Positions 222-16,957 are shown, numbered from the stretch's first letter. The stretch is 64,000 nucleotides of DNA from an uncultured Verrucomicrobiota bacterium (GCA_903873415.1 CAIQOK010000163.1:11985-75984), one strand, 5' to 3'. Notes: a model not told the origin generated them from the sequence alone. A program made the numbers and translations.

Positions 222-536
222 ATGCCGAACATAAAAACCCTGACTTGGGAGTTCAAGCGTCAATGTGTGGCTTGGGGGAGGCAAAGCGCTCCGCTTAATC
301 CTGCGAGCCTCAACTTTCGGCAAGGGGCTTGCTACTAATCGTTGATGATGAAAAAGAATCCAGCCCGGTCCGCATCGATTCGCCCCGAAACCAGAGGGTT
401 TCTTGCCGATCCGAGGGGAAATCGAAGGGGTTCGCGGATAATTGGTGGCTGTTCCAAGCCGTTGGGGTGGCTGACAGGCACGGTGCCGTTGGCTGTAATT
501 AGCCACCGCGACTAAAAAAGAACCCAGCACACCGCC

Positions 537-1976
537 ATGCTACACGATTACAAAAGGGAAATGTTTTTTGATGAAATGCTCGACGAGCGAGGTGCGGTGC
601 GGCCGCATTACGAGCAGTTCAGCCGCCTTTTTTCCTGCCTTTCCCCGGAGGAATTTGACAGCAAGCGCCAGGCTCTGGATCTGGCCTTTCTGCGCCAGGG
701 TGTGACTTTTAACGTCTATGGTGATTCTGCCGGGACGGAGAAGATTTTCCCGTTTGATCTTCTGCCGCGCATCATCCCGGCCAAGGAATGGGCCTTTCTG
801 GAACGTGGCTTGATTCAGCGCATCACGGCGCTGAATCTTTTTCTTCATGACATTTATCACGAGCAGAAAATCCTCAAGGACGGGGTGATTCCGCCATTTT
901 ATGTGTTGTCGGGAAGGCATTTCCGGCGGGAATTTGTGGGTTTCAACGTCCCGCGAGACATTTACATTCACATCTGCGGCACCGACCTGATTCGCGGTGC
1001 GGACGGCCAATACATGGTTTTGGAGGATAACGGCCGATGCCCCAGCGGTGTGAGCTACGTGTTGGAAAACCGGCGGGCCATGAAGCGCAGTTTCCCGGGC
1101 ATGTTTGAAGGGGTGGGTGTGCGGCCGGTGGAGGATTATCCCCGCGAGTTGCTGCGGATGCTCGAATACATCGCTCCGGCCGGGGTTTCCGATCCGACCG
1201 TGGTGCTGCTCACGCCCGGGCCTTACAACTCGGCGTATTTCGAGCACACCTACCTGGCCCGTCAGATGGGCATTGAAATTGTCGAGGGCCGGGATCTGGT
1301 CGTGCGCGATGCCCGGGTCTTTATGCGCACGACCAAAGGGCTCAAGGCCGTGCATGTCATTTACCGGCGGGTGGATGATGATTTTCTGGATCCCACGGTT
1401 TTCCGCCGTGACTCCATGCTCGGGGTGCCCGGTCTGGTCAATGCCTATCGTTCCGGCAATGTTTCCCTGAGCAACTCCATTGGCACCGGCATTGCCGACG
1501 ACAAAGTCATGTATTATTTCGTGCCGCGCATGATCAAGTATTATCTGGATCAGGAACCTCTCATCCCCAATGTGCCGACCTATCTGGCCAGCGAGGAGGC
1601 GGATCTGAAATACATCCTGGAAAATCTGGAGCGGTTGGTGGTCAAGGCCGCCAATGAATCCGGCGGTTACGGCATGCTGATGGGGCCCAAAGCGACCCGG
1701 GCTGAAATCGAGGCTTTCCGGGAGAAGATCATCGAGGATCCCCGCAATTATATCGCGCAGCCTATGATTTCCCTGTCGCGTCATCCGACCCACATTGAGG
1801 GGGGGGTGTTTGAAGGCCGGCACGTTGATTTAAGGCCTTACATCATTTACGGGGAGAAGACGGTCATAGTTCCGGGCGGACTGACCCGCGTTGCGCTGCG
1901 CAAGGGCTCGCTGGTGGTCAATTCTTCCCAGGGGGGTGGAAGCAAGGACACATGGGTTTTGTATGGGGATGAATAA
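537..1976 (+). CDS. Circularly permuted ATP-grasp protein (type 2; COG2308/DUF404-DUF407-like amidoligase)
   Basis: 479-aa ORF. The N-terminus ...[18 protein letters not shown]... and the blocks [57 protein letters not shown] and GGGSKDTWV are as I remember them for this family. An Alpha-E gene follows. Confidence 0.85.
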
Positions 1977-2050
1977 ATATTGTCGTGCCTGCGCAGGATC
2001 AACCGGTGACCGCAGGAGCCTGAGCGCAAAATCCGAAGCTTTGAAAAAAA

Positions 2051-3091
2051 ATGTTAAGCCGCGTTGCTAATTCGCTTTACTGGATGGCCCGCTATATCGA
2101 GCGTGCCGAGAACATCGCGCGGATTGTGGATGTGAACCTGCAATTGCTTTTGGACCTGCGCGATCTTGATGAGAAACGCGTGGCGGAGCATTGGCTGCCT
2201 ATTGTGCAGGCGACCGGCGACGAGGAGCAGTTTTTTCAGCGCCACGCCCAGGCCACCGCCCAAGCTGTGACGGAATTCCTAGTGTTTCAGCTGGAAAACC
2301 CTAATTCCATCGTCACCTCAATCTGTCAGGCACGGGAAAACGCCAGGATGGTGCGTGACCAAATCACCGTGGAATTGTGGGAGGAATTGAACCGGCTGTA
2401 TTGGTTTGTGCGCACGCCTCAGGCGCTGGCGGTTTGGAAGGAGAGCCCCAGCGACTTTTTTCAGCAGATCAAAGCCAGCTCGATGCAGATCATGGGGTTG
2501 ACCTATGCAACCCTCATTCGCAATGAGGGTTGGTGGTTCACCCAGGCGGGCAAGTTGATCGAGCGGGGGGACAAGACCTCTCGGATACTGGATTTACGGT
2601 TCCACACCTTGCCGGAGCGGGGGCTGCCTAAAAGTGTCAGCGAGACGGATGCCTTGGCCTGGTCAGCCATTCTGCGGTCATGCAGCGCTTGGGATGCCTA
2701 TAAATCCCTTCGCGGCGCGGAGGTTAACCCGCGTTTGGTTGCGGAATTCCTGCTGCTTAACGCGGATTTCCCCCGGTCCGTGAGGTTTTGTGTCAACGAA
2801 CTCAATCGGGCTCTGCGCCACATTTCCGGCGTGTCTGAGGGACGGTTTTGCAACGAGGCTGAAAAACTCGCCGGCCGTCTGGTGGCCGAGCTGCAGTTCA
2901 CCACCATTGAGGAGGTTTTTGATCAGGGCTTGCATATCTATCTGGACCAGTTGCAGGGAAAGTTCAACCGCATCGGCGATGCTTTGTTCCAAGCGTATAT
3001 TTTCCAGAAGTTCAGCAACATCGAGGACGAAATCATGGTCCAGCAGGAGGAACAGCAGCAACAGGAGCTGCGAAAAATCAGCTTGTTCTGA
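2051..3091 (+). CDS. Alpha-E domain protein (COG2307/DUF403-like), partner of the preceding ATP-grasp
   Basis: 346-aa ORF starting MLSRVANSLYWMARYIERAENIARIVDVN, the characteristic Alpha-E N-terminus. It lies 74 nt downstream of the ATP-grasp gene. Confidence 0.85.
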   Translation: MLSRVANSLYWMARYIERAENIARIVDVNLQLLLDLRDLDEKRVAEHWLPIVQATGDEEQFFQRHAQATAQAVTEFLVFQLENPNSIVTSICQARENARMVRDQITVELWEELNRLYWFVRTPQALAVWKESPSDFFQQIKASSMQIMGLTYATLIRNEGWWFTQAGKLIERGDKTSRILDLRFHTLPERGLPKSVSETDALAWSAILRSCSAWDAYKSLRGAEVNPRLVAEFLLLNADFPRSVRFCVNELNRALRHISGVSEGRFCNEAEKLAGRLVAELQFTTIEEVFDQGLHIYLDQLQGKFNRIGDALFQAYIFQKFSNIEDEIMVQQEEQQQQELRKISLF

Positions 3092-3120
3092 CTCCAACTG
3101 GTGCCACCTTTTAAACCAAC

Positions 3121-6100
3121 ATGCAGACCACTGTTACACCCCGTTCAGCCTTGGTTCCGGCCCATTTAAAAGCGTATATCAACATCAAGCTGGCGCTGCT
3201 GGGTTGCCAGGCCGTGCCATCGCAGGACAGCGAGGCATTCGCTGACATTATTTCGTCGTTGATTGCCCAGTGCAAGGAGAAGGAACGACTGTTGGCCAAT
3301 CACCTCTGCCCGGCCGACCGCCGTATCCAGTCGTTTCTCTACGACTATCTGCAGGAACTTCCGGTGGCTAAGCTCCCTCTTCAGACTTTCACGCTGGATC
3401 GGGAGGGGATGGCGCGCGTGCTCTCGCTGCCGGTGGACCGGGATGAATTTGTTTCGGACATTTGCAGTTCCTACCGTGTTGCGCAGGGTGTGCTCCATAA
3501 TCCCCGGAGTGATCGGCGCACGACGCAGGGCATTTTTCATATTGCGGAAGGCGGTCTGCCCATCCCGGCCGATAAAATCAGCGTGCCCAAGGCGGTCTTT
3601 GGCAGGATGCTGGGGTTTGCCCTCACTCCGCCCCGCTCTTTGCTGGGCCTGCCTTTCACCGCCACGCAGCCCCAAACAGCCGAGTGTTTTGTTTCGCTGC
3701 TGCTGCGTCCGGTGGTTTGTCCGGCGGTGCCGGGATTTACTCCCCAGAAAACCATGGAGATCCGGTTCTTTGCACCCGGAAATCTGGTGAGCAATCTGGA
3801 TTTCGTGGAAAGTATTTTCGGCAACGCCGGCGATCCTGGCCTTCCGGAAAACGACGCCGGACTGGATCCGGAGCACTGGAGCGGCCACACGGGCTGTGTC
3901 ATTCTTGCGCCCCATCTGACCGGGATCACCAAGAGGGATGGCGGGCTGCCGCATTGGGATGCCGCCACTGAGCGTCAGCGCCGCGACGGCATGTGCTGGC
4001 GCGACGAGGCCGAACTTTACAATGGCGGTCAGGCCTTCAAGCTCACCTGTCGCGACGAGTCGGGAGTGATAGTGACCCTGATTGCAGACAATTATTTCGG
4101 CTACTGCAAGAAGGAGGTCAAAACCCAGATCAGCTACGCTGCCAACCTCTTCGGATTATGCGAGGAGGAGCACGCAGGCGGGGCCCTGGTTTTCCCCGGT
4201 TACGACTTGGGCGAGGAATTCAGCGGCAATGTGCATGTCAAGCCGATGGGCCACTCGTATGCCGAGATGACCGAGCTCTTCGGCGAGCTTCTGACGCCGA
4301 TGCCGGAGGGGTTCGCGGTGGATAAAAAACACCCGGATATTATCTACGTGCCTGAGGACGCCCGCTTCGACCTGCACAAGCAGAGGGTGTTTTGGTCTGG
4401 CGCCGAATCGGAGCATTCCATCCGGCTGCAACCCGGGAACACTTATGTGCGCCCTTCGGGGTATCAGGTTCAAATGGAAAAGCCCGGACCCAATCGCGGG
4501 TGGCGTCTGGTGGGGGTGGCGGCCGAGGGCGCTTTTTGCCACAAACCCTGCACTGTTTCTGGCGGCGGCAAGTCGGAGATTTCCAAGCCGATCAGCGACG
4601 CCATTCTCACCGGCCCGGTTTTCATTGCCGACTTCAAAAAAGATTTCGACCAGGTCGCTCATCTTATTCAGCGCGATTATAGTGGCCGATTCAAGGATCC
4701 AGCCCGGACCGACACCCGGGCCATTTTGAGCGCAGAACGATCGCTGGGTTCTGTGATCAAGCTGCTCACCCCGGACGAGCGCGATTATCTGCCGGAGTAC
4801 AACGACTGGCTTGAGGCGGTGCCGCAATACCTCAAGGAACTGGTCTTTGTGGTTAAACGCTATTACAAGCCCGAGTGGGCCGGCGACTGGCGGGAGCATT
4901 TCAGTGTTGATATTATCAACGGCAAGCCCGCAAACGAACTGAAGTGTGATAATCGCAAGCTGGTGACCACCTGTCTGAGGGTCGGATTTGACACTGACGG
5001 ATCGTGGCGAACCTTCGGCTTGCGCAAGGATTTTTATCCCGCCGTCAAAATCCAGATGGAAGACGACATCACCGCCTCGGTGCTCGTGCCCCGGGACCGG
5101 CTCAAACACCTTTCGGACGAGGATTGCGCTCCGACCCTCAAGTTTGTTCAGAACTGCGAGCGGCGTTTGTTTCAGCGTCCGGATGACGCGATTCATCGCG
5201 GATATGACAAGCAGGCGGAGGCGGATTTTGCGCGTCCTGATAATTTCTTTTCGAATTACCAGCCGCTGAACCGGAACCAGGCTCGCGAACTGATGGATGA
5301 GGCGATTGGCTTCTATCAATTCACCGAGCCGATGCAGGCTTTGATCCGCCAAGTGGCCGAATCAACCTCTCCGGGTTTTCTCGTGTCTTCCGCGCATCCG
5401 CGGTTGGTGGAGGGCAAACCCAGTAAGAACCCCCGTTACCTGCAGACCCGGCCCGATCTGGTCCAGCCCCGGGCTAGTTATCTTGCCTCCATGTCGGCGC
5501 GCCTGCGCCGGCGTGTGCCCGTTGGTCAGCCCGTTTACACGCCGGTCACTGCTGTTCTCCCGGGGCGCCGTAATAATCCGGCCGAGCCGGGGATCCGTTC
5601 GTTGGCGGTTTTCAATCCCATTCATTATCTTGAACTGCCCGAGCTCTTTATGGAGTTCATTTGCAGCATGACGGGAAAGTCACCCTCAACCACCGGAGCG
5701 GGTTCCGAGGGGGCTTTGACCAAGGGGCCCTTCAATGCCTTGCCCCCTATCATTGATCTGAACAACGCCCTGGTTTCCTGGATTCTGACCGGGCACCATG
5801 GCTTTGTGACAGCCGCCGGCTGCGTGGGACCCAAGTTCCGCGTGGATCATGATGTCAGCCTTCTGGTGCCGGAAGTCTGGTGCCGCATGACGCCGGCCGA
5901 ACGCGACCCTGCGTTTCTCATCGCCAACCACTATCTGGATCGATGCGAGGATTATTTCCACGGGGGGAAACCTGTTTACGCCAGCCGTCTGGGCTATAGG
6001 ATCAACGCCCACTTCAGCCACGCGTTCTTCGGCCGTGTCTTCAACCATCCCCACGCCGTGTTTAGCGAGGAAATGCTCCGGCCGGAGCTGCAGGATCCCG

Positions 6101-6543
6101 AGGAGTTTGCCGATGGGGTTGACAATATCGTGGCCACGCAGCGGCGTGTCTCCGCGCTGTATTTTTCGGATGGCAGCATCAACCAAGCTTGTCCGCCTTT
6201 GCGGGCCCTGCTCCACATCATGCTTCATGATTCCTGGGAGGGGCGCTCAATCCAGCATCCCGAAGTGCGGAGCCTCTTTAGCCGGGAACAACTCATGGCC
6301 AGCGACTGGTATGCCGCCCGTCTGGCGGCGCGGCAGGAAATCGACCGGGCCCAGTGGAAAGGGCATGTCGAGTATCTTGAAAAATTCCTCAAGCGCGCCA
6401 GTCATGCCGAAGAAGCGGCACACCTCGGTCTGCCTGATCGATTGGTCCGAGCGCGGCATATGTTGGAAAAGACCTGGGCGGCAGACTATCTCCAAAACAT
6501 CGCCGGGACTTTGGGGGCGGAACCGGTTGGCTCCTATCTTTAA
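3121..6543 (+). CDS. Large (1140-aa) conserved-looking protein. Candidate PPi-dependent phosphoenolpyruvate carboxykinase (PPi-PEPCK-like); function not established
   Basis: Uninterrupted 3.4 kb ORF with gaps of 29 nt and 11 nt to its neighbours. PEPCK-like motifs occur in the canonical order: NPRSDRR (aa 127-133), YFGYCKKEVK (aa 325-334), EEH 20 residues after the KK pair (aa 349-351), and the P-loop-like SGGGKSE (aa 480-486, nt 4558-4578). The length matches the ~1100-1150-aa PPi-PEPCK class. The confidence value refers to the functional call; that this is a real CDS is about 0.9. Confidence 0.45.
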   Translation: MQTTVTPRSALVPAHLKAYINIKLALLGCQAVPSQDSEAFADIISSLIAQCKEKERLLANHLCPADRRIQSFLYDYLQELPVAKLPLQTFTLDREGMARVLSLPVDRDEFVSDICSSYRVAQGVLHNPRSDRRTTQGIFHIAEGGLPIPADKISVPKAVFGRMLGFALTPPRSLLGLPFTATQPQTAECFVSLLLRPVVCPAVPGFTPQKTMEIRFFAPGNLVSNLDFVESIFGNAGDPGLPENDAGLDPEHWSGHTGCVILAPHLTGITKRDGGLPHWDAATERQRRDGMCWRDEAELYNGGQAFKLTCRDESGVIVTLIADNYFGYCKKEVKTQISYAANLFGLCEEEHAGGALVFPGYDLGEEFSGNVHVKPMGHSYAEMTELFGELLTPMPEGFAVDKKHPDIIYVPEDARFDLHKQRVFWSGAESEHSIRLQPGNTYVRPSGYQVQMEKPGPNRGWRLVGVAAEGAFCHKPCTVSGGGKSEISKPISDAILTGPVFIADFKKDFDQVAHLIQRDYSGRFKDPARTDTRAILSAERSLGSVIKLLTPDERDYLPEYNDWLEAVPQYLKELVFVVKRYYKPEWAGDWREHFSVDIINGKPANELKCDNRKLVTTCLRVGFDTDGSWRTFGLRKDFYPAVKIQMEDDITASVLVPRDRLKHLSDEDCAPTLKFVQNCERRLFQRPDDAIHRGYDKQAEADFARPDNFFSNYQPLNRNQARELMDEAIGFYQFTEPMQALIRQVAESTSPGFLVSSAHPRLVEGKPSKNPRYLQTRPDLVQPRASYLASMSARLRRRVPVGQPVYTPVTAVLPGRRNNPAEPGIRSLAVFNPIHYLELPELFMEFICSMTGKSPSTTGAGSEGALTKGPFNALPPIIDLNNALVSWILTGHHGFVTAAGCVGPKFRVDHDVSLLVPEVWCRMTPAERDPAFLIANHYLDRCEDYFHGGKPVYASRLGYRINAHFSHAFFGRVFNHPHAVFSEEMLRPELQDPEEFADGVDNIVATQRRVSALYFSDGSINQACPPLRALLHIMLHDSWEGRSIQHPEVRSLFSREQLMASDWYAARLAARQEIDRAQWKGHVEYLEKFLKRASHAEEAAHLGLPDRLVRARHMLEKTWAADYLQNIAGTLGAEPVGSYL

Positions 6544-6554
6544 GTCAAGTAACC

Positions 6555-9500
6555 ATGTCCATTCACGTCGCGCTACATCACAAGACACATTACAAGTACG
6601 ACCGGCTTGTCACTCTCGGGCCCCAAGTTGTGCGCCTGCGTCCCGCTCCCCATTCGCGGACCCGGATCCTGAGTTATTCCCTGAAAATCCGGCCGGAAAA
6701 GCATTTTATCAACTGGCAGCAGGATCCCCAGTCGAACTATGCCGCGCGGCTGGTTTTCGAGCGGCCGACCCGCGAATTTCTGGTGGAAGTGGACTTGGTC
6801 GCGGAGATGGCGGTTCTCAACCCGTTCGATTTTTTCCTGGAGCCGCAGGCCCGGAAATTCCCTTTCGCCTACGACCCGGCGATGGACCACGAGCTGGCGC
6901 CTTTCCAGCGCAAATGCTGGCTCACTCCCCAGTTTGCGAAGTATCTCACCGTCTTGAGGCGCGATTTGATTGGCGAGTTGAAACGACGCACCAAGCAGCA
7001 GCGACTGGAGATGCCCGAGAGCGAAAAGCTGCCCACCAACGACTTCATCGTGGCCATCAATCAGCGGCTCTGGAAAGACATCCAATACACCATCCGGCTT
7101 GAACCCGGTGTTCAGGCGCCGGAAGAAACCCTCACCAGAATGAGCGGATCCTGCCGCGATTCGGCCTGGCTGCTCGTCCAGTTGTTACGCCATTTCGGCC
7201 TGGCTGCCCGCTTTGTCAGCGGATATCTGATCCAGCTCAAGGCGGATGTGAAATCGCTTGATGGTCCCAGTGGCGCGGAAAAGGATTTCACCGATCTTCA
7301 CGCCTGGACCGAGGTTTATCTGCCCGGAGCCGGGTGGATTGGTCTTGATCCCACCTCGGGCCTGCTGGCTGGTGAGGGGCATATTCCGCTGGCCTGCACG
7401 CCCGAGCCTTCCAGCGCCGCGCCCATCAGCGGAGGTGTGGATGAATGTGAAACCCAGTTCGGCTTCGACATGACCGTTGCGCGGGTGCATGAGTCTCCTC
7501 GTGTTACCAAGCCTTACACCGAGGAGCAGTGGGTGGAGATCGAGAAGCTTGGCCATGCGATTGACGCTGATCTGGTGCGGAATGACGTGCGGCTCACCAT
7601 GGGCGGCGAGCCCACTTTTGTTTCCTTGGACGATCCCGACGGTCCCGAGTGGAATTTCACCGCGATGTCGCGGCACAAGCGGATCCTTTCCGGGGAGCTG
7701 ATCCGCCGGCTTAGGAACAAGTTTGCTCCGGGGGCTTTGCTTCATTACGGGCAGGGCAAATGGTATCCGGGCGAACCTCTGCCGCGCTACGCCCTGGCCG
7801 CCTATTGGCGGAAGGACGGAGTTCCGGTCTGGAAAGATGAGTCGCTTATCGCTGACGAGTCCGAAAACTATGGTCACGGCCCGAAGGAGGCTAAGGAGCT
7901 GGCCTCCCGCATTGCGAAGAAGCTCGGTGCCGATTCCACCCATCTCATTCCGGCCTACGAAGATGCCTTCTATTACTCTTGGAAGGAGCGTCGGTTCCCC
8001 TCCAATGTTTCCCCGGAAAAATCGAACCTTAAGGACAGGCAGGAACGGGACCGGATTGCCAGAATTTTTCAACAGGGGCTTGGCTCGGTGGTGGGCTACA
8101 CCCTTCCTATCCAGCGTGTCAGGCAGGGGGGGCAAGATGGCTGGGTTTCGGGCCGGTGGTTTCTGCGCGATGACAACACGCTGTGGTTGATTCCCGGTGA
8201 TTCAGCAATGGGGCTGCGCCTGCCGCTTGATTCCATCCCATGGGTTTCAGAGAAAGAGTATCCTTGGGTGCGACAACAGGATCCTTCCCAGCCGGATCTC
8301 CCGCAGTTGCCCCGGGGGTTCCCCTACCGCACCAGCCCGGAATCAAGCGGTCAGCGGTTCCTCAGCGGTGCGCCGGCACCAAGGCCCCCGGGCTTCGGTC
8401 CCGGTCAAGCAGCCCGAAAACCCGCCGCGCCCGAAAACCAGTTTTCCAAGTTTGAGGCCGACCCCAACCGTTGTCCGGCACCGGGAGAGAGCGCGCCATG
8501 GATCATCCGCACCGCGTTGTGCGTGGAACCGCGCGAGGGAAGGCTTCACATCTTCATGCCGCCTGTGGAAAAGGCGGAGGATTATCTGGACCTCATCGCC
8601 GGGATCGAGGCGAGCGCTGCGGAGATCGGGTTGCCGGTGGTCATTGAGGGGGAAACCCCGCCCAAGGATCCGCGTCTGAACAAACTCGCCGTCACCCCCG
8701 ATCCGGGCGTCATCGAGGTGAACATGCATCCCAGCAAGTCCTGGGGTGAGTTGGTGGAGTGGACGACCGTGCTTTATGAGGAGGCGCGGCAGACGCGTTT
8801 GGGCACGGAGAAATTCATGGTGGATGGACGCCACACCGGCACCGGCGGAGGCAATCATATCATTATCGGAGGGGAAACTCCGGTCGACTCCCCTGTCTTG
8901 CGCCGGCCCGACCTGCTGCGCTCTCTGCTGACCTACTGGCAGAATCACCCCTCCTTGAGCTGGCTATTCAGCGGACTGTTTATCGGTCCGACTTCCCAAG
9001 CCCCGCGCATGGACGAGGCCCGCAATGATTCGCTTTACGAATTGGAGTTGGCTTTCAAGGAAATGGACAAGCAGGCCGGTGCCCAAGTGCCGCCGCCGCC
9101 CTGGCTGGTTGACCGTTTGTTCCGCAATCTGCTGGTGGACTCGAGCGGCAACACCCATCGCGCCGAGTTCAGCATCGACAAATTATTCGCGCCCGAGAGC
9201 AGCACCGGTCGTCTTGGCTTGGTGGAGATGAGGGCTTTTGAAATGCCCCCTGATGCCCGCATGAGTTTGGCGCAGCATCTTCTTCTGCGCGGCCTGGTTT
9301 CCAAGTTCTGGAAGGAACCCTACACCAACCGTTTGATCCGTTGGGGCAGCGCCATTCATGATCGATGGATGCTGCCGCATTTTTGCGAAACCGATTTCAC
9401 GGACGTGATCGAGGACCTGCGCAAATCCGGCTACGGGTTTGAGCGGAAATGGTTCGACCCTCATTTTGAATTCCGGTTTCCGCGGATCGGGGATCTGGCG

Positions 9501-10016
9501 CTGCGGGATTTGCACGTTGAGCTTCGCACGGCTTTGGAGCCCTGGCACGTTTTGGGGGAGGAGCCGGGCGGCGGCGGGACCGTGCGCTATGTGGACAGCT
9601 CCGTGGAACGGCTGCAGATCAAGGCCCGCGGTCTGGCGGATGACCGGTTTGCCATCACCTGCAACGGGCATCGGGTGCCTTTGCACCCCACCGGTGTTAA
9701 TGGAGAGGGTGTGGCCGGCGTTCGCTATCGTGCCTGGCAGCCGCCGGTCTGCCTGCAGCCCACCATCAAATCCCATGCCCCGCTGCGCTTTGATCTCTAC
9801 GACACGTGGAACGGGCGTTCGCTGGGCGGGTGCACCTACCATGTGGCGCATCCGGGGGGGCGCAGCTATGACTCTTTTCCCGTGAACAGTTATGAGGCGG
9901 AGAGCCGCAGGTTAGCCCGTTTTTTCCGGCATGGCCATCAGCAGGGCCGTTTTCAACCAACGCCTGAAATCCCCAATGCAGACTTTCCTTTCACTCTGGA
10001 TTTGCGCATTCTTTGA
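6555..10016 (+). CDS. Large transglutaminase-family protein (Bact_transglu_N + transglutaminase core + long DUF2126-like C-terminal region)
   Basis: 1153-aa ORF. The N-terminus MSIHVALHHKTHYKYDRLV...VVRLRPAPH is typical of the bacterial transglutaminase N-domain. The core reads GSCRDSAWLLVQLLRHFGLAARFVSGY...LHAWTEVYLPGAGWIGLDPTS, so the Cys/His/Asp context is intact. About 800 further residues follow, as in the ~1100-aa DUF2126 proteins. Confidence 0.85.
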   Translation: MSIHVALHHKTHYKYDRLVTLGPQVVRLRPAPHSRTRILSYSLKIRPEKHFINWQQDPQSNYAARLVFERPTREFLVEVDLVAEMAVLNPFDFFLEPQARKFPFAYDPAMDHELAPFQRKCWLTPQFAKYLTVLRRDLIGELKRRTKQQRLEMPESEKLPTNDFIVAINQRLWKDIQYTIRLEPGVQAPEETLTRMSGSCRDSAWLLVQLLRHFGLAARFVSGYLIQLKADVKSLDGPSGAEKDFTDLHAWTEVYLPGAGWIGLDPTSGLLAGEGHIPLACTPEPSSAAPISGGVDECETQFGFDMTVARVHESPRVTKPYTEEQWVEIEKLGHAIDADLVRNDVRLTMGGEPTFVSLDDPDGPEWNFTAMSRHKRILSGELIRRLRNKFAPGALLHYGQGKWYPGEPLPRYALAAYWRKDGVPVWKDESLIADESENYGHGPKEAKELASRIAKKLGADSTHLIPAYEDAFYYSWKERRFPSNVSPEKSNLKDRQERDRIARIFQQGLGSVVGYTLPIQRVRQGGQDGWVSGRWFLRDDNTLWLIPGDSAMGLRLPLDSIPWVSEKEYPWVRQQDPSQPDLPQLPRGFPYRTSPESSGQRFLSGAPAPRPPGFGPGQAARKPAAPENQFSKFEADPNRCPAPGESAPWIIRTALCVEPREGRLHIFMPPVEKAEDYLDLIAGIEASAAEIGLPVVIEGETPPKDPRLNKLAVTPDPGVIEVNMHPSKSWGELVEWTTVLYEEARQTRLGTEKFMVDGRHTGTGGGNHIIIGGETPVDSPVLRRPDLLRSLLTYWQNHPSLSWLFSGLFIGPTSQAPRMDEARNDSLYELELAFKEMDKQAGAQVPPPPWLVDRLFRNLLVDSSGNTHRAEFSIDKLFAPESSTGRLGLVEMRAFEMPPDARMSLAQHLLLRGLVSKFWKEPYTNRLIRWGSAIHDRWMLPHFCETDFTDVIEDLRKSGYGFERKWFDPHFEFRFPRIGDLALRDLHVELRTALEPWHVLGEEPGGGGTVRYVDSSVERLQIKARGLADDRFAITCNGHRVPLHPTGVNGEGVAGVRYRAWQPPVCLQPTIKSHAPLRFDLYDTWNGRSLGGCTYHVAHPGGRSYDSFPVNSYEAESRRLARFFRHGHQQGRFQPTPEIPNADFPFTLDLRIL

Positions 10017-10053
10017 ATCTGATAAGCAGACCGAATGATTTAATCCGTTCCCT

Positions 10054-12636
10054 ATGTTCCAGTCTCAAGCGCAATCCGCCTCGGACCAGAAGCGCGCCGT
10101 CCGCAAGGGGGCGCTTGGGGAAGCCGACTGGTTGTGCGGCTATCCGTCAGGGGCGTCGGCTTTCGACGAGTTTTTAGGGGGGCAACGCAAGCCCCGCCCG
10201 CATTACGCCGGTTTGTTTGATTCCTTGCAGGGGCTGGGAAGGGCCGAATTCAAACGCCGCCAGGAAACCTGCGGTCATCTCGTTCAGGAACAGGGCATCA
10301 CCTACAATGTTTATGGCGACCCTCGCGGCATGGAGCGGCCTTGGCAACTGGATCCGCTGCCGCTGGTCATCGCGCCGGACGAGTGGGCTTTGATCGAGGC
10401 GGGCCTGATCCAGCGCGCCATCCTCTTGAACAGGATCCTGGCGGATTGCTATGGGGCGCAGGAGTTGATCCGCTCGGGCTGGCTTTCACCGGCTTTGGTG
10501 TTTGCCCAGCCGGCGTTTCTGAGGCCCTGCCACGGCGTGCTTGTCCCCCGTGATCTCTTCCTCTATTTCTACGGTGCGGATCTGGCCCGTTCGCCCGATG
10601 GCCGCTGGTGGGTTGTCTCCGATCGCACCCAGATTCCGACCGGTGCCGGGTATGCCTTGGCCAACCGTTTGATCACCTCCAGGATTCTGCCCGAACCTTT
10701 CAGGGATCAGCGGGTGCGCCGGTTGGCCGGTTTCTTCCGGGACGCCCAATCAACCCTGAGCGATCTGGCAGACCGCCCGTCTTGCAAGGGGCGTGTGGTT
10801 ATTCTCACCCCCGGCCCGCATAACGAGACTTATTTCGAGCAGGCTTACCTGGCGCGTTATCTCGGATACATGTTGGTGGAGGGGCAGGATTTGACCGTGC
10901 GCGACAATGAGGTTTTTTTAAAGACCCTCGGCGGGTTGGAGCGGGTGGATGTGATTTTGCGCCGGGTGGACGATGATTTTTGCGATCCGTTGGAACTGCG
11001 CAATGATTCCATGCTCGGAGTGCCGGGTCTGGTCGAGGTGGTCCGCGCTGGCAATGTGGTTATGGCCAATGCCTTGGGTAGTGGCTTGGTGCAGAGCCCC
11101 GCCTTCATGCCTTTTCTTCCGGGGCTCTGCAAGCATCTTCTCGGGGAGGAATTGAAGCTGCCCTCGGTGGCAACCTGGTGGTGTGGTCAGCAAGCGGCCC
11201 AAAAGTATGTCTGCGAACACCTTGGCGAATTGAATGTGCGCCCCGCTTTTCCCGCCCGGCCTGCGGTGGCCGATACCGACCAACCCATGAGCGCGGCGGA
11301 GTGCGAGGATCTGCGCCGGCGGATTCAATTCGACCCGGATTTGTTTGTGGCTCAGGAACGGGTTGGTTTGTCCACTTCGCCGACTTGGGACGGCGCCGGG
11401 TTGACGGCCAGTCCGATCGGGTTGCGTGTTTTTCTCGCGGCAAGCGGCAGGGGCTATTCCGTGATGCCAGGAGGTTTGACGCGTGTTTCGCCCGAGGGCA
11501 GCGGGCGGGTTGTTTCCCTCCAACGCGGCGGTGCCAGCAAGGACACATGGGTCCTCAGTGAAACCCCCGTTGAGGAGGTTTCCTTGCTTCATCGTGCCGG
11601 GCAGACCATTGAGTTGAGGCGGACGGGAAACAATCTTCCTTCGCGTCTGGCGGACAATTTTTACTGGCTGGGCCGCTACGCCGAGCGGGCCGATGCCACG
11701 GGGCGTTTGTTGCGCAGCGCACTGAGGCGTTTCAATCCGGAGCGCACCGGCAGCGCCATGCCGCTGCTGGCGCCCCTGTTGAAAACATTGGAGGTTCAGG
11801 GACAGTTGCCCGGTGTGCTTGGGCGGCTTGATTTGAGGCAGAATCCCGAGGCGTTTGAGGCGGAGCTCCTCGCAGCCATCTTTGATCCCTCGCGCGGCGG
11901 GAGCCTCCACAATATCTGCAGCCATCTCCACCAGCTTGCCATGCATGTTCGCGACCGGACGTCCAACGACATGTGGCGTGTCATCAGCCAGATCAACCAA
12001 CGCCTGGCCACGCCGGCCAGCAGTCTGGCCATGCTCGCCGGGGATGCCACTCAGGTGCTTACGGAGACGCTTCTGGGCCTGTCGGCCTTTCAGGGATTGG
12101 CCCGTGAGAACATGACCCGCGCCCAAGCGTGGAGGTTTCTTGACATGGGTCTGCGCCTGGAGCGTGCGATTTATCTGTGCACCCTGTTGGATGCCACCCT
12201 GCTTTCGGATGAGGCGGAGGACCAGAGCGTGTTGGAGGCCGTGTTGGAGGTTGCCGACAGCTCCATCACCTATCGTTCCCGCTACAGTCTGCTGGCGCTG
12301 GTGCCGCCTGTGTTCGACCTGATATTGTTGGACGACAAGAACCCTCGATCCGTGCTCTTTCAGCTCCGCCAGTTCCTCAAACATATCGAAAAGCTTCCCG
12401 GGCAGCGCGAGGGGACTGCGGGCGCGGGGCGCACCCTGCTGCTGGCTTGCACCGCCCTCCTTGAACGAGCCGACGCCCGGGAACTGGCCCAGCCGCCGGA
12501 AAAGTGGCCCCGAAGCCAGGTCGCTTCCGCAATCAGGGCCACCTTGCATGCGTTGCCCGAGATTTCCAATACCCTTGCCGCCATCTACTTCGCGCATTCG
12601 ACCATCTCGCGCACCGGACGGGAGAACTCGCCGTGA
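10054..12636 (+). CDS. Fusion protein: circularly permuted ATP-grasp + Alpha-E domain
   Basis: 860-aa ORF. The N-terminal half is paralogous to 537-1976 (ILTPGPHNETYFEQAYLARYLG, RRVDDDFCDP, GVPGLVEVVRAGNVVMANALGSG, GGASKDTWVL). The C-terminal half carries the Alpha-E signature (RLADNFYWLGRYAERADATGRLLR). Confidence 0.85.
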   Translation: MFQSQAQSASDQKRAVRKGALGEADWLCGYPSGASAFDEFLGGQRKPRPHYAGLFDSLQGLGRAEFKRRQETCGHLVQEQGITYNVYGDPRGMERPWQLDPLPLVIAPDEWALIEAGLIQRAILLNRILADCYGAQELIRSGWLSPALVFAQPAFLRPCHGVLVPRDLFLYFYGADLARSPDGRWWVVSDRTQIPTGAGYALANRLITSRILPEPFRDQRVRRLAGFFRDAQSTLSDLADRPSCKGRVVILTPGPHNETYFEQAYLARYLGYMLVEGQDLTVRDNEVFLKTLGGLERVDVILRRVDDDFCDPLELRNDSMLGVPGLVEVVRAGNVVMANALGSGLVQSPAFMPFLPGLCKHLLGEELKLPSVATWWCGQQAAQKYVCEHLGELNVRPAFPARPAVADTDQPMSAAECEDLRRRIQFDPDLFVAQERVGLSTSPTWDGAGLTASPIGLRVFLAASGRGYSVMPGGLTRVSPEGSGRVVSLQRGGASKDTWVLSETPVEEVSLLHRAGQTIELRRTGNNLPSRLADNFYWLGRYAERADATGRLLRSALRRFNPERTGSAMPLLAPLLKTLEVQGQLPGVLGRLDLRQNPEAFEAELLAAIFDPSRGGSLHNICSHLHQLAMHVRDRTSNDMWRVISQINQRLATPASSLAMLAGDATQVLTETLLGLSAFQGLARENMTRAQAWRFLDMGLRLERAIYLCTLLDATLLSDEAEDQSVLEAVLEVADSSITYRSRYSLLALVPPVFDLILLDDKNPRSVLFQLRQFLKHIEKLPGQREGTAGAGRTLLLACTALLERADARELAQPPEKWPRSQVASAIRATLHALPEISNTLAAIYFAHSTISRTGRENSP

Positions 12637-13505
12637 ATTATCAGATCATCCACCGCACAACCTATGATTATTCAGCGCCGGTGACCGCTTCGCATCATGT
12701 GGCCCGGCTCAAGCCGGTGGATCATCCGGGCCAGGTCTGCGAGGTCTTTGAGCTGCAGATTTCCCCCGCCCCGGCCCGGCGGGCGGAGCGGACCGATTAC
12801 TTTGGCAACCGGCTTTGCTTCTTCAGTATTCAAGAGGCGCATCAGAGGCTTGAGATCACCTCCACCAGTCGTGTGAAGCTGCAAGCCGGCAGGATGCCGA
12901 TGCCGCGCTCCTCCGCCCCCTGGAAAACCGTGGCCGGGCTGTTCCGCGATCCTGTCTCTCCGGAAGCGGTGGATATTTATCAGTTTGTTTTTGATTCCCC
13001 CCATATCCGTTCATCCCCGGATCTGGCAGGCTACGCTGCCGTGAGCTTCCCGGCCGAGGGGTCTTTGCTGGCGGGTGCCCGCGATCTGACGCGCCGGATT
13101 TTCCAGGATTTTATTTACGATCCCCGGTCGACCACTGTGGCGACGCCGTTGGAGGAGGTGCTGGAAAAACGGCGGGGGGTTTGTCAGGATTTTGCGCATC
13201 TGGCTATTGGCTGTCTGCGGTCTCTGGGGCTTCCGGCCCGCTATGTCAGCGGGTATTTGCGGACCCGCCCGCCGGAAGGTCAGACGCGCTTGGTGGGGGC
13301 CGATGCCTCGCACGCCTGGTTCTCTGTATTTTGCCCTGGTGAGGGCTGGGTGGGTTTCGATCCAACCAACAACGTGCTGCCCCGCGAAGAACACATTCCT
13401 GTGGCGCACGGCCGCGATTTTGGCGATGTCAGTCCCGTGGCGGGAATCCTGACGGGGGGCGGTCTGCATACCGTGCAGGTGTCTGTGGATGTTTCAACTG
13501 TCTGA
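12633..13505 (+). CDS. Transglutaminase-family protein (Bact_transglu_N + Transglut_core)
   Basis: The GTG at 12633 overlaps the upstream stop (GTGA). The product begins VNYQIIHRTTYDYSAPV, the canonical family N-terminus. The core reads RRGVCQDFAHLAIGCLRSLGLPARYVSGY...SHAWFSVFCPGEGWVGFDPTN. The track ORF start at 12504 would overlap the upstream gene by 130 nt. Confidence 0.85.
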   Translation: MNYQIIHRTTYDYSAPVTASHHVARLKPVDHPGQVCEVFELQISPAPARRAERTDYFGNRLCFFSIQEAHQRLEITSTSRVKLQAGRMPMPRSSAPWKTVAGLFRDPVSPEAVDIYQFVFDSPHIRSSPDLAGYAAVSFPAEGSLLAGARDLTRRIFQDFIYDPRSTTVATPLEEVLEKRRGVCQDFAHLAIGCLRSLGLPARYVSGYLRTRPPEGQTRLVGADASHAWFSVFCPGEGWVGFDPTNNVLPREEHIPVAHGRDFGDVSPVAGILTGGGLHTVQVSVDVSTV

Positions 13506-13531
13506 GGTGGTCCAAATTAGTTCTTTTGCCT

Positions 13532-14362
13532 ATGAAATGGGAAATCATCCACCGCACCCGTTATGATTACGCATCCTTGGTGCGGGAAAGTTTCAACGAG
13601 GTCCGCTTGCAACCCTTCTCCGACGAGTGGCAGTCGGTGGACGATTTCCTGCTTAAAATATTGCCTGCTGCGCGCCTGCGGCATCATCACGATTTCTATT
13701 CCAACATTGTTCATTGCTTTGAAATAGCAGAGCCGCATCAGACACTTCTTGTGGAAAGTCGGTTGCGCGCCACGACCCGGTCGCAGCCGCCGATTCCGGA
13801 GCACGCCGAGACTTGGCCGCTGGCGCGGATGAGGGATGCGGCGTTGGCTCCTCGCGACTATGAGTTTCTGCAGGCGAGCCGGTTTGTGGAGTTGTCCCCG
13901 GAAGCGTGGCGGTTGGCGCTCGACGCCACGGTCGGGTTGACCGATGCCTGGCAGGCGGCTCTGGCAATTGTGCGATTTGTCCACGCCCGGTTCAAGTATG
14001 TGCCCAACTCCACCACCGTTCATACGCTCATGGGACAGGTGCTGCGGGAACGGCAGGGTGTCTGCCAGGATTTTGCCCATGTCACTTTGGGTTTGTGCCG
14101 CGCCTTGAAAATTCCGGCCCTGTATGTCAGCGGCTATCTGGCCACCGAAAATGCCAGTGCCACCCACGCCTGGGTCGAGGTCTTCATTCCGGGGCAGGGC
14201 TGGCGCGGTGTCGATCCGACTCACGGCCGGCAGGTTGACTCGACTTATCTTAAAATTGCCGTCGGTCGGGATTACGGGGACGTGCCGCCGGTGACCGGGC
14301 ACTACAAGGGCACTCTGGAGCGGAAGATGGAGGTTTCGGTGCAAATTCAGACCGGTGTTTAG
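13532..14362 (+). CDS. Transglutaminase-family protein (second small paralogue)
   Basis: From the ATG at 13532 the product reads MKWEIIHRTRYDYASLV. The core reads RQGVCQDFAHVTLGLCRALKIPALYVSGY...THAWVEVFIPGQGWRGVDPTH. The track start at 13526 is a TTG two codons upstream. Confidence 0.85.
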   Translation: MKWEIIHRTRYDYASLVRESFNEVRLQPFSDEWQSVDDFLLKILPAARLRHHHDFYSNIVHCFEIAEPHQTLLVESRLRATTRSQPPIPEHAETWPLARMRDAALAPRDYEFLQASRFVELSPEAWRLALDATVGLTDAWQAALAIVRFVHARFKYVPNSTTVHTLMGQVLRERQGVCQDFAHVTLGLCRALKIPALYVSGYLATENASATHAWVEVFIPGQGWRGVDPTHGRQVDSTYLKIAVGRDYGDVPPVTGHYKGTLERKMEVSVQIQTGV

Positions 14363-14432: not shown

Positions 14433-15989
14433 ATGACAGATTTGGATCTAGTGAATGAACCTATGATTTGCCGTCTGGGCGAATCGCGCAAACCGGCCGA
14501 GCCCTGCTCCATCGTGATTTTTGGCGCTAGCGGCGATCTAACCGCGCGCAAGCTCATTCCCGCTCTTTACCACCTTTTCAAGGAAAAGCAGATGCCGGTC
14601 GCCTTCCGGGTGGTCGGATTTGCGCGCCGCGAGAAAACGGACGAATCCTGGCGTCAGGAATTGCGGATCGCCCTGGATCAGTTTTCGCGCACAAAGCCCG
14701 TGGACGAGACTGTCTGGCGGGAGTTTGCCGCCAACTTGGTCTATTGCCAGGGGGACCTCACTGACGCGGGGGCCTATCAAAAGCTGGAGTGTCTCTTGAC
14801 GGGGTTTGGTAGCGGGCCATTGCGTGAAAACCTCTTGTTTTATCTTGCCATTTCGCCCAGCCAGTTCGGCGAGGTCGTGGAGCATGTCCATCGCGCCGGC
14901 CTCTTGAACAAGGACGGAGCGGCCTGGCAGCGTATTGTCGTTGAGAAGCCTTTCGGCCACGATTTGAACTCGGCCCATGCGTTGAACAACGAACTGACCC
15001 GGTTTGCCCACGAACGTCAGGTGTTCCGGATTGACCATTACCTTGGCAAGGAGACGGTGCAGAACATTCTCATGTTCCGTTTCTCCAACTCCATATTTGA
15101 GCGCTTGTGGAATCGCGAATCGGTTGACCACGTCCAGATCACCGTCAGCGAAAAACTCGGCGTTGGGGGGCGCGGTGGGTATTACGAGGAGGCCGGCGCG
15201 CTGCGGGACATGGTTCAAAATCACATGTTGCAAGTGCTGGCCCTCATCACCATGGAACCGCCGGTGTCACTCGAGGCCGAAGCCATCCGGGATGAAAAAG
15301 TAAAACTGCTCAAATCAATCCGGCCGCTCCGCAGCGACGAGGTCCTGCGCCAAGTGGTCCGGGGCCAATACTTTGCGGGCATGGTGGGCGGCGAGTCCCG
15401 TCCGGGCTACCGTCAGGAAATCAAGGTCAGGCCTGATTCTCATGTTGAGACCTTTGTGGCTCTTAAATTGTTTATCGACAACTGGCGCTGGTCCGGCGTG
15501 CCCTTTTATTTGCGGACTGGCAAGAACCTTCCGATGAGCGCCAGCGAGGTGCGGATCCAGTTCCGTTCCACTCCGAACGTTCTGTTTGCGGCGCAGTGCG
15601 GGGAACGGCTCGATTCCAATGCGCTGACTTTGCGTCTTCAACCCAACGAAGGCATCTCTCTGCGCTTCAACGGAAAGGTTCCAGGCACGAGCTTGGCCGT
15701 GCGGCCGGTGCGCATGCACTTTAGTTACGATTCGGAATTCGGGGCCTACACCCCCGAGGCATACGAGCGGCTGCTCCTGGAGGCGATGGTCGGGGATGCC
15801 ACGCTCTTCATCCGCCGCGATGAGGTGGAAACCGCCTGGCAGATTGTGGATTCCATTCGCGCGGGGTGGGAGGGCAAGGCGCTGACAAACCGGGAGTTTT
15901 ATGCCGCCGGCACTTGGGGTCCGATTGCCGCCGAGGAGTTGCTGGCGCGAGCCGGGCACGCTTGGCACGAGCCCCAGGGCAGGAAGTGA
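14433..15989 (+). CDS. zwf: Glucose-6-phosphate 1-dehydrogenase
   Basis: Contains IVIFGASGDLTARKLIPALYHLF (NADP-binding motif), RIDHYLGKE (active-site motif) and VQNHMLQVL. The ATG at 14433 avoids overlap with the upstream gene, which ends at 14362. Confidence 0.93.
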   Translation: MTDLDLVNEPMICRLGESRKPAEPCSIVIFGASGDLTARKLIPALYHLFKEKQMPVAFRVVGFARREKTDESWRQELRIALDQFSRTKPVDETVWREFAANLVYCQGDLTDAGAYQKLECLLTGFGSGPLRENLLFYLAISPSQFGEVVEHVHRAGLLNKDGAAWQRIVVEKPFGHDLNSAHALNNELTRFAHERQVFRIDHYLGKETVQNILMFRFSNSIFERLWNRESVDHVQITVSEKLGVGGRGGYYEEAGALRDMVQNHMLQVLALITMEPPVSLEAEAIRDEKVKLLKSIRPLRSDEVLRQVVRGQYFAGMVGGESRPGYRQEIKVRPDSHVETFVALKLFIDNWRWSGVPFYLRTGKNLPMSASEVRIQFRSTPNVLFAAQCGERLDSNALTLRLQPNEGISLRFNGKVPGTSLAVRPVRMHFSYDSEFGAYTPEAYERLLLEAMVGDATLFIRRDEVETAWQIVDSIRAGWEGKALTNREFYAAGTWGPIAAEELLARAGHAWHEPQGRK

Positions 15990-16219
15990 GATTTCCAAGT
16001 GTCTCCCGGGACACCGGTGCTTCGGGTTCGTTAACAGATCCTTTGAAACGGCCCGTTTCTCTTGTCGTAGTCGGCAAAATAGAGGGTGTGGGGCGGCCCC
16101 GATTGCGTCTTCCCTGTCGGGGTGGCGGCCCGGCTGTTTTTTGAGATGCGGCTGGTGTAACGGCCGGGATCCGCCCCGGCAACTGGAAATGTTTATAGGC
16201 TTTCATCCCCAAGAAATGC

Positions 16220-16957
16220 ATGAGTGGAATTGAAATGGTTTCCTGTTCCAGCGACAATGATTTGGCTGCGCGGGCTTCCGAGGCGTGGATCAGTGAGATC
16301 GCACGAGCCAGTCGCGCAGGAAAGCCGCATTGCGTCGCCCTGTCTGGCGGCCGAATCGCCCGGAAGTTTTTCACCGCGACCGTACATCGCATTAGGACGG
16401 GGCGAATTGGCGGGGGCGACTCGGCGCGCTTGCTTGACCATGTGCATTTTTTCTGGGCGGATGAGCGGTGTGTTCCGCCGACGGATGGCGAGAGTAATTT
16501 CCGGATGGCCGACGAGTTGTTGTTCCGGCCGTTGGGGGTTTCCGCCGGCCGGATTCATCGCATCTGCGGGGAGGAATCGCCGGAGGTAGCCGCGGAAAAG
16601 GCGGCGGCGGAAATCTCCCGTATTGTTCCCCTTAAGGCAGCGGGGCAGCCCGCGCTGGATCTTATCTTGCTCGGTTTGGGGGAGGACGGTCATGTGGCCT
16701 CGCTTTTCCCCGGTGAATCCGAGGCGGTGGCGTCCGGTCCCGAGGTCTATCGTTCCGTTCATAATTCGCCCAAGCCCCCACTCAAGCGGGTGACGCTGGG
16801 TTATGCGGCGATTGCGGCCGCAGGGCAGGTCTGGATGCTCGCCTCTGGGGGTGGTAAAGCAGCCGCACTGGGCGATGCGGTGTCGCCTGCGGGGAATAAT
16901 CCTTTCGCCCGGGTCTTGAGGAGCCGCTCGGGAGTGACGGTTTTCAGGGACTTTTGA
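16220..16957 (+). CDS. pgl: 6-phosphogluconolactonase
   Basis: Contains VALSGGRIARKFF, FFWADERCVPPTDGESNF and DLILLGLGEDGHVASLFPG, which are typical Pgl/DevB motifs. It follows zwf. Confidence 0.88.
   Translation: MSGIEMVSCSSDNDLAARASEAWISEIARASRAGKPHCVALSGGRIARKFFTATVHRIRTGRIGGGDSARLLDHVHFFWADERCVPPTDGESNFRMADELLFRPLGVSAGRIHRICGEESPEVAAEKAAAEISRIVPLKAAGQPALDLILLGLGEDGHVASLFPGESEAVASGPEVYRSVHNSPKPPLKRVTLGYAAIAAAGQVWMLASGGGKAAALGDAVSPAGNNPFARVLRSRSGVTVFRDF

Follow-up and report, generated by a model that had tools for sequence, protein, structure and literature searches.

What does a bacterium gain from carrying two versions of one orphan ligase system side by side, and is such an arrangement unusual? 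The question is raised by a 64,000-nt stretch of DNA from an uncultured Verrucomicrobiota bacterium (GCA_903873415.1, CAIQOK010000163.1:11985-75984; hereafter the window), in which seven co-directional genes (537-14362) bring together a split and a fused version of the circularly permuted (CP) ATP-grasp/Alpha-E/transglutaminase-fold (TG) system and one further, very large gene. Judged by domain content and neighbourhood, the interval is a typical six-gene orphan CP ATP-grasp/Alpha-E/TG cluster with a pyrophosphate (PPi)-dependent phosphoenolpyruvate carboxykinase (PEPCK) inserted at the junction of the Alpha-E gene and the large TG gene. Relative to the known system there are two modestly useful additions: a sigma-54-type motif conserved upstream of the leading ATP-grasp gene, and a clade-specific tie to PPi-dependent carbon enzymes.

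Gene content of the cluster

The seven open reading frames (ORFs), all on the + strand (537-1976, 2051-3091, 3121-6543, 6555-10016, 10054-12636, 12633-13505 and 13532-14362), are identical with those called as genes on the metagenome contig of origin (ERZ1426842, 88.5 kb). They are separated by 74, 29, 11, 37, -4 (a GTGA overlap) and 26 nt. An initial annotation of this DNA had given the same seven co-directional genes, coordinates, gaps and tight packing, and the ORF calls and source gene calls agree with it throughout. The Pfam hidden Markov model scan likewise assigned the domains it had proposed to genes 1, 2, 4, 5, 6 and 7.

The first gene (A1, 537-1976, +) encodes a stand-alone CP ATP-grasp ligase of 479 amino acids (aa), which matches Pfam CP_ATPgrasp_2 with 551 bits (profile 1-374/374) and CP_ATPgrasp_1 with 499 bits. 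Its presumed partner subunit is the Alpha-E protein of gene 2 (E1, 2051-3091, +; 346 aa; Alpha-E, 323 bits). Gene 5 (A2E2, 10054-12636, +; 860 aa) is a CP ATP-grasp fused to Alpha-E (CP_ATPgrasp_2, 490 bits; Alpha-E, 222 bits). PF14403 and PF04174 match genes 1 and 5 full length, and PF04168 matches gene 2 and the C-terminal half of gene 5. As gene 5 fuses them, the A and E parts would be expected to act together. Identity is 39% between A1 and the N-terminal half of A2E2, and 23% between E1 and the C-terminal half; the split and fused modules are thus old paralogues. The ER motif of Alpha-E is kept in both at aligned positions (YIERAE in E1, YAERAD in A2E2), and the N-terminal half of A2E2 matches PDB entry 3n6x, titled 'putative glutathionylspermidine synthase', with 309 bits. 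A conserved stretch, AAATG.CCAC...CAAAAA, stands directly before the A1 ATG in the window (480-536) and at the orthologous position of three relatives (L001, L065 and L086 of the neighbourhood survey described below). In some relatives it is in frame with A1, and the start lies ~13 codons earlier there; a TAA interrupts it in the window, where A1 therefore begins at 537.

Gene 4 (bigTG, 6555-10016, +; 1153 aa) joins a TG domain to DUF2126, a putative amidoligase (Pfam Bact_transglu_N, Transglut_core and DUF2126, the last with 1314 bits over profile 1-826/826). Its triad (C200/H249/D265) is invariant in an alignment that reaches from Verrucomicrobiota to Proteobacteria, and the protein is 54-60% identical to its proteobacterial homologues. 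The family is large, with at least 8000 close matches and 2855 clusters at 50% identity (E<=1e-30).

Two small TG proteins close the cluster. TGa (12633-13505, +; 290 aa), whose GTG start overlaps the A2E2 stop, and TGb (13532-14362, +; 276 aa; triad intact) both match Bact_transglu_N and Transglut_core. TGa also matches PDB entry 3isr (1.6e-13) with the Cys/His/Asp triad aligned, and 6g49 (TgpA) is its next PDB match. All three TG-fold proteins had been said to keep the Cys/His/Asp contexts, and the alignment bears this out: GSCRDS, LHAW and LDPT in bigTG, GVCQDF/SHAW/FDPT in TGa and GVCQDF/THAW/VDPT in TGb. TGa comes after A2E2 in nearly all sampled loci and is a conserved partner of bigTG-A2E2. 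TGb is restricted to close relatives in the same Verrucomicrobiota clade. An unbootstrapped neighbour-joining tree separates it from the TGa clade and puts it with the small TGs of L135 and L147, which are encoded after Alpha-E (E1) and before bigTG. On this weak evidence, TGb probably belongs to the split A1-E1 module as its TG, relocated to the 3' end, and the same grouping lends weak support to the nested order A1-E1-[X]-bigTG-A2E2-TG-TG proposed initially.

Two small TGs from other lineages depart from these contexts. In Burkholderia cenocepacia (NZ_CP091013.1, L081) the small TG directly after Alpha-E (10990-11904) has Ser for the catalytic Cys (GTSRDH) and a long, low-complexity Ser/Gln-rich insert, and is possibly a non-catalytic or serine-nucleophile variant. 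The TGa homologue of Azospirillum brasilense (L083, 18126-18992) has VCPT where others read the catalytic-Asp motif (F/L/V)DPT.

Gene 3 (3121-6543, +; 1140 aa) was the 'gene X' of the initial annotation, an extra giant gene of unknown nature. A phmmer search against PDB aligned residues 19-1135 with 6k31, the PPi-PEPCK of Actinomyces israelii (1278 bits), and also returned 8e1u, another PPi-dependent PEPCK (1258 bits). Its precomputed Pfam family is PF26300 (PEPCK_PPi_lobe_2). No match was found in the copies of Pfam, NCBIfam and PHROGs that were scanned, and it was the PDB sequence search that identified the protein. As it aligns end to end with solved PPi-PEPCKs, and is of the same length class, the giant gene is not an unknown component: by homology it is a PPi-dependent PEPCK, a known housekeeping enzyme of central carbon metabolism. 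It differs from those enzymes in its setting, inside a non-metabolic cluster behind a sigma-54-type motif. PPi-dependent PEPCKs of Entamoeba and Propionibacterium were reportedly the subject of Chiba et al. 2015.

Frequency of the merged layout

Species-representative genomes were scanned with a PEPCK profile and metagenome contigs with a bigTG profile, and the window proteins were mapped by tblastn onto 160 loci. To these were added four proteobacterial replicons and, from the closest bigTG relatives, three neighbourhoods. The best homologues of PEPCK and bigTG come from Verrucomicrobiota metagenome-assembled genomes labelled Verrucomicrobiia, Limisphaerales or Pedosphaera. The trio bigTG-A2E2-TGa was found in Ralstonia, Azospirillum, Shinella, Burkholderia and ~60 metagenome loci, A2E2-TGa being near-universal after bigTG. 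In the 43 bigTG loci whose upstream sequence extends for at least 3 kb, A1-E1 lies directly upstream and co-directional in 15, divergently adjacent in 5 and just after TGa in 3, with none nearby in the other 20. The initial annotation had regarded the merger of split and fused modules as special. Since about half of the bigTG loci with enough flank (23/43) have an adjacent A1-E1, the merged double module is instead a normal, frequent configuration, an outcome that the annotation had itself named as counting against its claim. It also occurs in B. cenocepacia, as A1-E1-smallTG-bigTG-A2E2-TGa; the A1-E1 and bigTG-A2E2-TGa parts match the window, but the small TG directly follows E1 and PEPCK is absent. 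Only the PEPCK insertion is lineage-specific, as it is confined to one Verrucomicrobiota clade whilst the merger is common. When the ORFs of 120 aa or more in the flanks of 84 loci were clustered, no further recurrent partner family and no Anbu emerged.

A sigma-54-type motif upstream of A1

Alignment of the A1 upstream regions of eight loci, which are otherwise unalignable, exposed a shared motif, CGGCAAG-N4-YTGCT. The window form, cGGCAaG-GGGC-TTGCT (318-333), has the canonical spacing of the sigma-54 consensus, TGGCACG-N4-TTGCW. This sigma-54 (RpoN)-type promoter motif, GGCAAGGGGCTTGCT (319-333, +), stands 218 nt ahead of the A1 ATG, with its -24 GG at 319-320 and its -12 GC at 331-332. GGCAAG-N4-YTGCT has a single match on both strands of the 64-kb window, against a chance expectation of 0.08.

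A looser motif, GGC[AC]-N6-YTGCW, was counted 5-450 nt upstream of genes, in sense and antisense, and compared with shuffles. Upstream of A1 it was present in sense in 20/37 regions, across phyla, and in antisense in one (1/37), with a shuffle mean of 0.63 (maximum 3). Counts upstream of cluster-leading bigTG genes were 11/52 in sense and 8/52 in antisense (shuffle mean 1.04). PEPCK upstream regions are at background, with 4/75 in sense against 5/75 in antisense (shuffle mean 1.44). A sigma-54-like motif also precedes the internal bigTG in 6/40 loci. Individual examples include a canonical motif in B. cenocepacia (GGCACGTTCCTTGCA, 59 nt before A1) and a sigma-54-like motif before the leading bigTG of Ralstonia (GGCACGAACCTTGCT, at -79). 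A recurrent string, GGCC..CTG.CTGCA, in the 3' coding region of bigTG, ~295 nt before A2E2, also fits the loose pattern (L089, L090, L097, L115, L116 and L129); it probably represents conserved codons rather than a promoter.

We infer that the motif at 319-333 acts as a promoter. Its position before A1 fits published hints of nitrogen limitation and RpoN: P. putida raises expression of the Anbu operon when nitrogen is limiting, a result that PMC5666114 and PMC6376114 cite, an RpoN site has been predicted upstream of a CP_ATPgrasp_1 gene in Bradyrhizobium (PMC13207237), and in marine metagenomes the abundance of these domains tracks that of urea-metabolism domains (PMC3597751). A sigma-70 scan returned nothing relevant within the interval. 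Genes 1-7 are probably one unit: the gaps between them do not exceed 74 nt and none holds a terminator-like hairpin, and at one junction start and stop overlap. The first such hairpin with a T-run in an intergenic gap downstream (16116-16134, +; GTCGGGGTGGCGGCCCGGC then TGTTTTTTGA) lies after zwf, in the zwf-pgl gap, so the transcription unit may extend from A1 through TGb to zwf.

PEPCK and phosphofructokinase in related clusters

PEPCK stands beside the cluster in one Verrucomicrobiota clade only, and its position there is variable. The window has PEPCK in the slot between E1 and bigTG, and lacks the phosphofructokinase (PFK) that shares this slot in relatives. The order A1-E1-PFK-PEPCK-bigTG-A2E2-TGa-TGb was found in L001, L065 and L086, and the same order without TGb in L093. 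A contig end soon follows A1-E1-PEPCK-bigTG in L012 and L050, and a contig end cuts the upstream side of PEPCK-bigTG-A2E2-TGa-TGb in L085; L005 and L166 have PEPCK-bigTG-A2E2-TGa with A1-E1 absent upstream. Elsewhere PEPCK follows the cluster, either directly after TGa (A1-E1-bigTG-A2E2-TGa-PEPCK in L017 and L025) or behind a gene for a cNMP-binding, CRP-family-like regulator that lies between TGb and the PPi-PEPCK (L167, 18032-18877, minus strand). In L007 it is divergent (10001-13384) from A1-E1-PFK-bigTG-TGb (1459-9681, minus strand), a cluster in which A2E2 and TGa are absent, and carries its own sigma-54-like motif 63 nt upstream (GGCATCGCAGTTGCA). PFK is present and PEPCK absent in L165 and L105.

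The slot PFK is an atypical protein of 464 aa, between Alpha-E and PEPCK or bigTG, which has the motifs GGDG and PKTIDND and scores below every NCBIfam cut-off. It was seen in L001 (5276-6670), L065, L086, L093, L165 and L007 and is frameshifted in L105; its ATG start in L001 shares bases with the stop of Alpha-E (ATGA). Away from this clade the association disappears: ~70 of 80 PEPCK loci have no module nearby, and none of ~70 bigTG loci of non-verrucomicrobial-like type has PEPCK or PFK. PEPCK, and PFK in the relatives, is most likely a passenger that shares the regulation of the cluster.

Comparison with known systems

CP ATP-grasp/Alpha-E/TG systems, including the DUF2126-type trio, were reportedly described on computational grounds by Iyer et al. 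in 2009 (Mol BioSyst 5:1636). The features of such systems are all found here: a CP ATP-grasp, an Alpha-E adjacent or fused to it with the ER motif, and a Bact_transglu_N protein with a Cys-His-Asp triad. Window genes 4-6 have the content and order of the DUF2126-type trio (a TG+DUF2126 protein of ~1100 aa, an A+E fusion and a small TG), but differ in having PEPCK ahead and a second small TG behind. The Mycobacterium tuberculosis trio is presumably of the Rv2566-Rv2567-Rv2569c type; Rv2567 itself appears in a published study with an ATP-binding annotation. The initial statement that this species carries the split and fused versions at two loci fits the locus tags Rv2411c and Rv2567, which are far apart.

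The split module resembles that of the Anbu operon, for which Valas and Bourne 2008 is also said to be a source. The Anbu-operon type comprises a CP ATP-grasp, an Alpha-E, a protein of transglutaminase-like type and, as the fourth gene, the proteasome beta-like Anbu (Fuchs et al. 2017, PMC5666114; Piasecka et al. 2018, PMC6376114). The window shares with it the adjacency and order of A1-E1, a matching small TG (TGb) and a nitrogen-limitation/sigma-54 flavour, but no Anbu gene was found, the TG is displaced to the 3' end and PEPCK comes after Alpha-E. No proteasome-family domain was detected in the eight genes of the unit or the 20 other window ORFs scanned. Studies of the Anbu operon found no substrate (PMC5666114, PMC6376114). 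The Yersinia Anbu-operon ATP-grasp releases Pi from ATP, and neither a substrate, a complex nor an Anbu peptidase activity was found (PMC6376114). Rv2411c and Rv2567 were expressed and showed no activity in a single assay, no γ-aminobutyric acid (GABA)-trehalose being made (bioRxiv 10.64898/2026.04.15.718621). Functional work on this operon published later than 2018 did not turn up in the literature search. The family is thus experimentally orphan, as the initial annotation had it.

Proposed function and alternatives

On balance we favour a general scheme in which an amide-ligase/TG-fold system is switched on through sigma-54, with PEPCK inserted into it; this seems to us a somewhat better than even reading of the sequence. 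Transcription would run from the sigma-54 promoter through TGb, and perhaps zwf. Each ATP-grasp, with its Alpha-E partner, would activate a carboxylate as an acyl-phosphate and then join it to an amine, and the DUF2126 domain would be a further, glutamine-synthetase-like carboxylate-amine ligase. The gamma-glutamyl or isopeptide-type bonds so formed would be substrates for the three TG-fold thiol enzymes, which would hydrolyse or transfer them. As substrate class we would weakly prefer a small peptide or amide containing nitrogen, whose synthesis and trimming follow nitrogen status, over a protein tag, because of the extreme conservation across phyla, the lack of room for a tag gene and the lack of a protease partner.

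Several points weigh against this scheme. The window motif has C, not T, before the GG of the consensus match, and its distance of 218 nt from the ATG is unusually long. No Sigma54_activat domain was found among the window ORFs scanned, rpoN and an activator not having been searched for. The designation of DUF2126 as a putative amidoligase draws on its Pfam label and on a resemblance of its motifs (GGEPTF, DGRHTGTGGGNH and VEMRAFEMPP) to glutamine synthetase that was judged by eye only. A search of the DUF2126 profile against PDB and Pfam (E<=10) gave no cross-family match, and sequence searches as well as profile searches saw only the TG domain. The AlphaFold2 model of bigTG, built from a 35-sequence alignment at 64-87% identity, is poor (mean pLDDT 42.6, pTM 0.34); an extra homologue search with a mixed profile added no diversity to the bigTG alignment, and a literature search on the name DUF2126 found no paper. 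The flank survey took ORFs of at least 120 aa, whereas a tag could be encoded by a smaller ORF. Lastly, several rearrangements have left PEPCK beside the cluster, and this speaks to some degree against a pure passenger.

This last point bears on an alternative in which PEPCK, with PFK in the relatives, is a functional part of the system, the ligase/TG proteins either covalently modifying or regulating these PPi-dependent enzymes of the PEP-oxaloacetate and fructose-6-P nodes or using an oxaloacetate- or aspartate-derived substrate, so that the linkage is selected. PEPCK lies beside the cluster in at least four arrangements (in the slot, after TGa, after TGb behind the cNMP regulator, and divergent) amongst loci whose bigTG proteins are 61-87% identical. 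The recurrence of the atypical PFK in the same slot of six loci, with its start overlapping the E1 stop in L001, and the separate motif at -63 of the divergent PEPCK in L007 point the same way. However, the association is limited to a single clade, fails in most PEPCK loci and in all the non-verrucomicrobial-like bigTG loci, and in the window itself the slot PFK is missing. Shared ancestry can account for much of the recurrence, and there is no obvious chemical tie, since ATP-grasp and glutamine-synthetase-like ligases yield ADP and Pi, not PPi. We therefore regard a functional role of PEPCK as decidedly unlikely. A different idea, said to originate with Iyer et al. 2009, is protein or peptide tagging analogous to pupylation, the ligases attaching tags and the TG-fold enzymes serving as de-tagging isopeptidases or cross-linkers. 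It draws on the occurrence of the split module in operons of Anbu, a proteasome homologue, on the established precedent of the glutamine-synthetase-like ligases PafA and Dop in actinobacteria, and on the action of TG-fold enzymes on protein Gln/Lys linkages, TgpA (6g49) being the next PDB match of TGa. Yet neither Anbu nor another protease gene was found in or near the cluster among the ORFs scanned, no extra neighbour recurs in the 84 loci, and a tag gene would not fit into the internal gaps, the longest of which is 74 nt. The 54-60% identity of bigTG across phyla fits a universal small substrate better, and Anbu itself showed no peptidase activity and no complex with its operon partners (PMC6376114). 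Tagging is accordingly unlikely in our view.

It may also be asked whether the genes form one system at all, or whether A1-E1, bigTG-A2E2-TGa-TGb and the metabolic genes merely lie side by side under separate promoters. The 20 of 43 bigTG loci with no A1-E1 nearby imply that the trio works alone, the M. tuberculosis locus tags put the two ATP-grasp genes far apart, and an internal bigTG is preceded by a sigma-54-like motif at a minority of loci (6/40, as above). Against this, A1-E1 adjoins bigTG in about half of the loci, in three orientations, and L007 pairs A1-E1 with bigTG-TGb in a cluster without A2E2 and TGa, which implies that parts are interchangeable between the modules. With its one sigma-54-like motif, gaps of 11-74 nt and no internal terminator, the window speaks for a single unit, and we consider separate systems very unlikely.

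Flanking genes

A gene for glucose-6-phosphate dehydrogenase (zwf, 14433-15989, +; TIGR00871, 641 bits) follows TGb, its called start at 14433 lying 70 nt behind it, and pgl (16220-16957) lies downstream of zwf. The window is the sole sampled locus with zwf after the cluster, none being found downstream of it in L001, L065, L086, L165 or L167. As zwf and pgl adjoin the cluster in no relative, they were rejected as members of the system. A horizontal-transfer island was also rejected, GC content being 55-62% throughout. Rfam and tRNA scans of the window were empty.

Further downstream, a PPi-dependent PFK (NCBIfam PRK14072; 17418-18697, +) is split over two frames by a one-base frameshift, ORF 17418-18293 covering profile positions 4-189 and ORF 18032-18697 positions 203-414. 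One C inserted after GGC at ~18009 would restore the motif EVMGRAAGWIAAG; the split marks either a pseudogene or an error of one base in the assembly. On the opposite strand, 29423-32872 (-) encodes a protein of 1149 aa that joins an MFS transporter, an acyltransferase and an AMP-binding domain, and resembles a lysophospholipid transporter/acyl-ACP synthetase-type fusion.

Significance

Genes of the CP ATP-grasp/Alpha-E/TG/DUF2126 type are very widespread and have gone more than 15 years without a known substrate. The conserved sigma-54-type motif that heads the merged form points to a condition in which the product might be sought. Moreover, the clade that keeps PPi-PEPCK and PFK in or beside the cluster offers a cheap, testable lead. 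It is a long shot that in this one clade the ligase/TG system is functionally tied, under sigma-54 control, to PPi-PEPCK and the atypical PFK, for example through covalent modification or a shared oxaloacetate- or aspartate-derived substrate. If so, this locus would offer a first physiological handle on a system that thousands of bacterial lineages carry.

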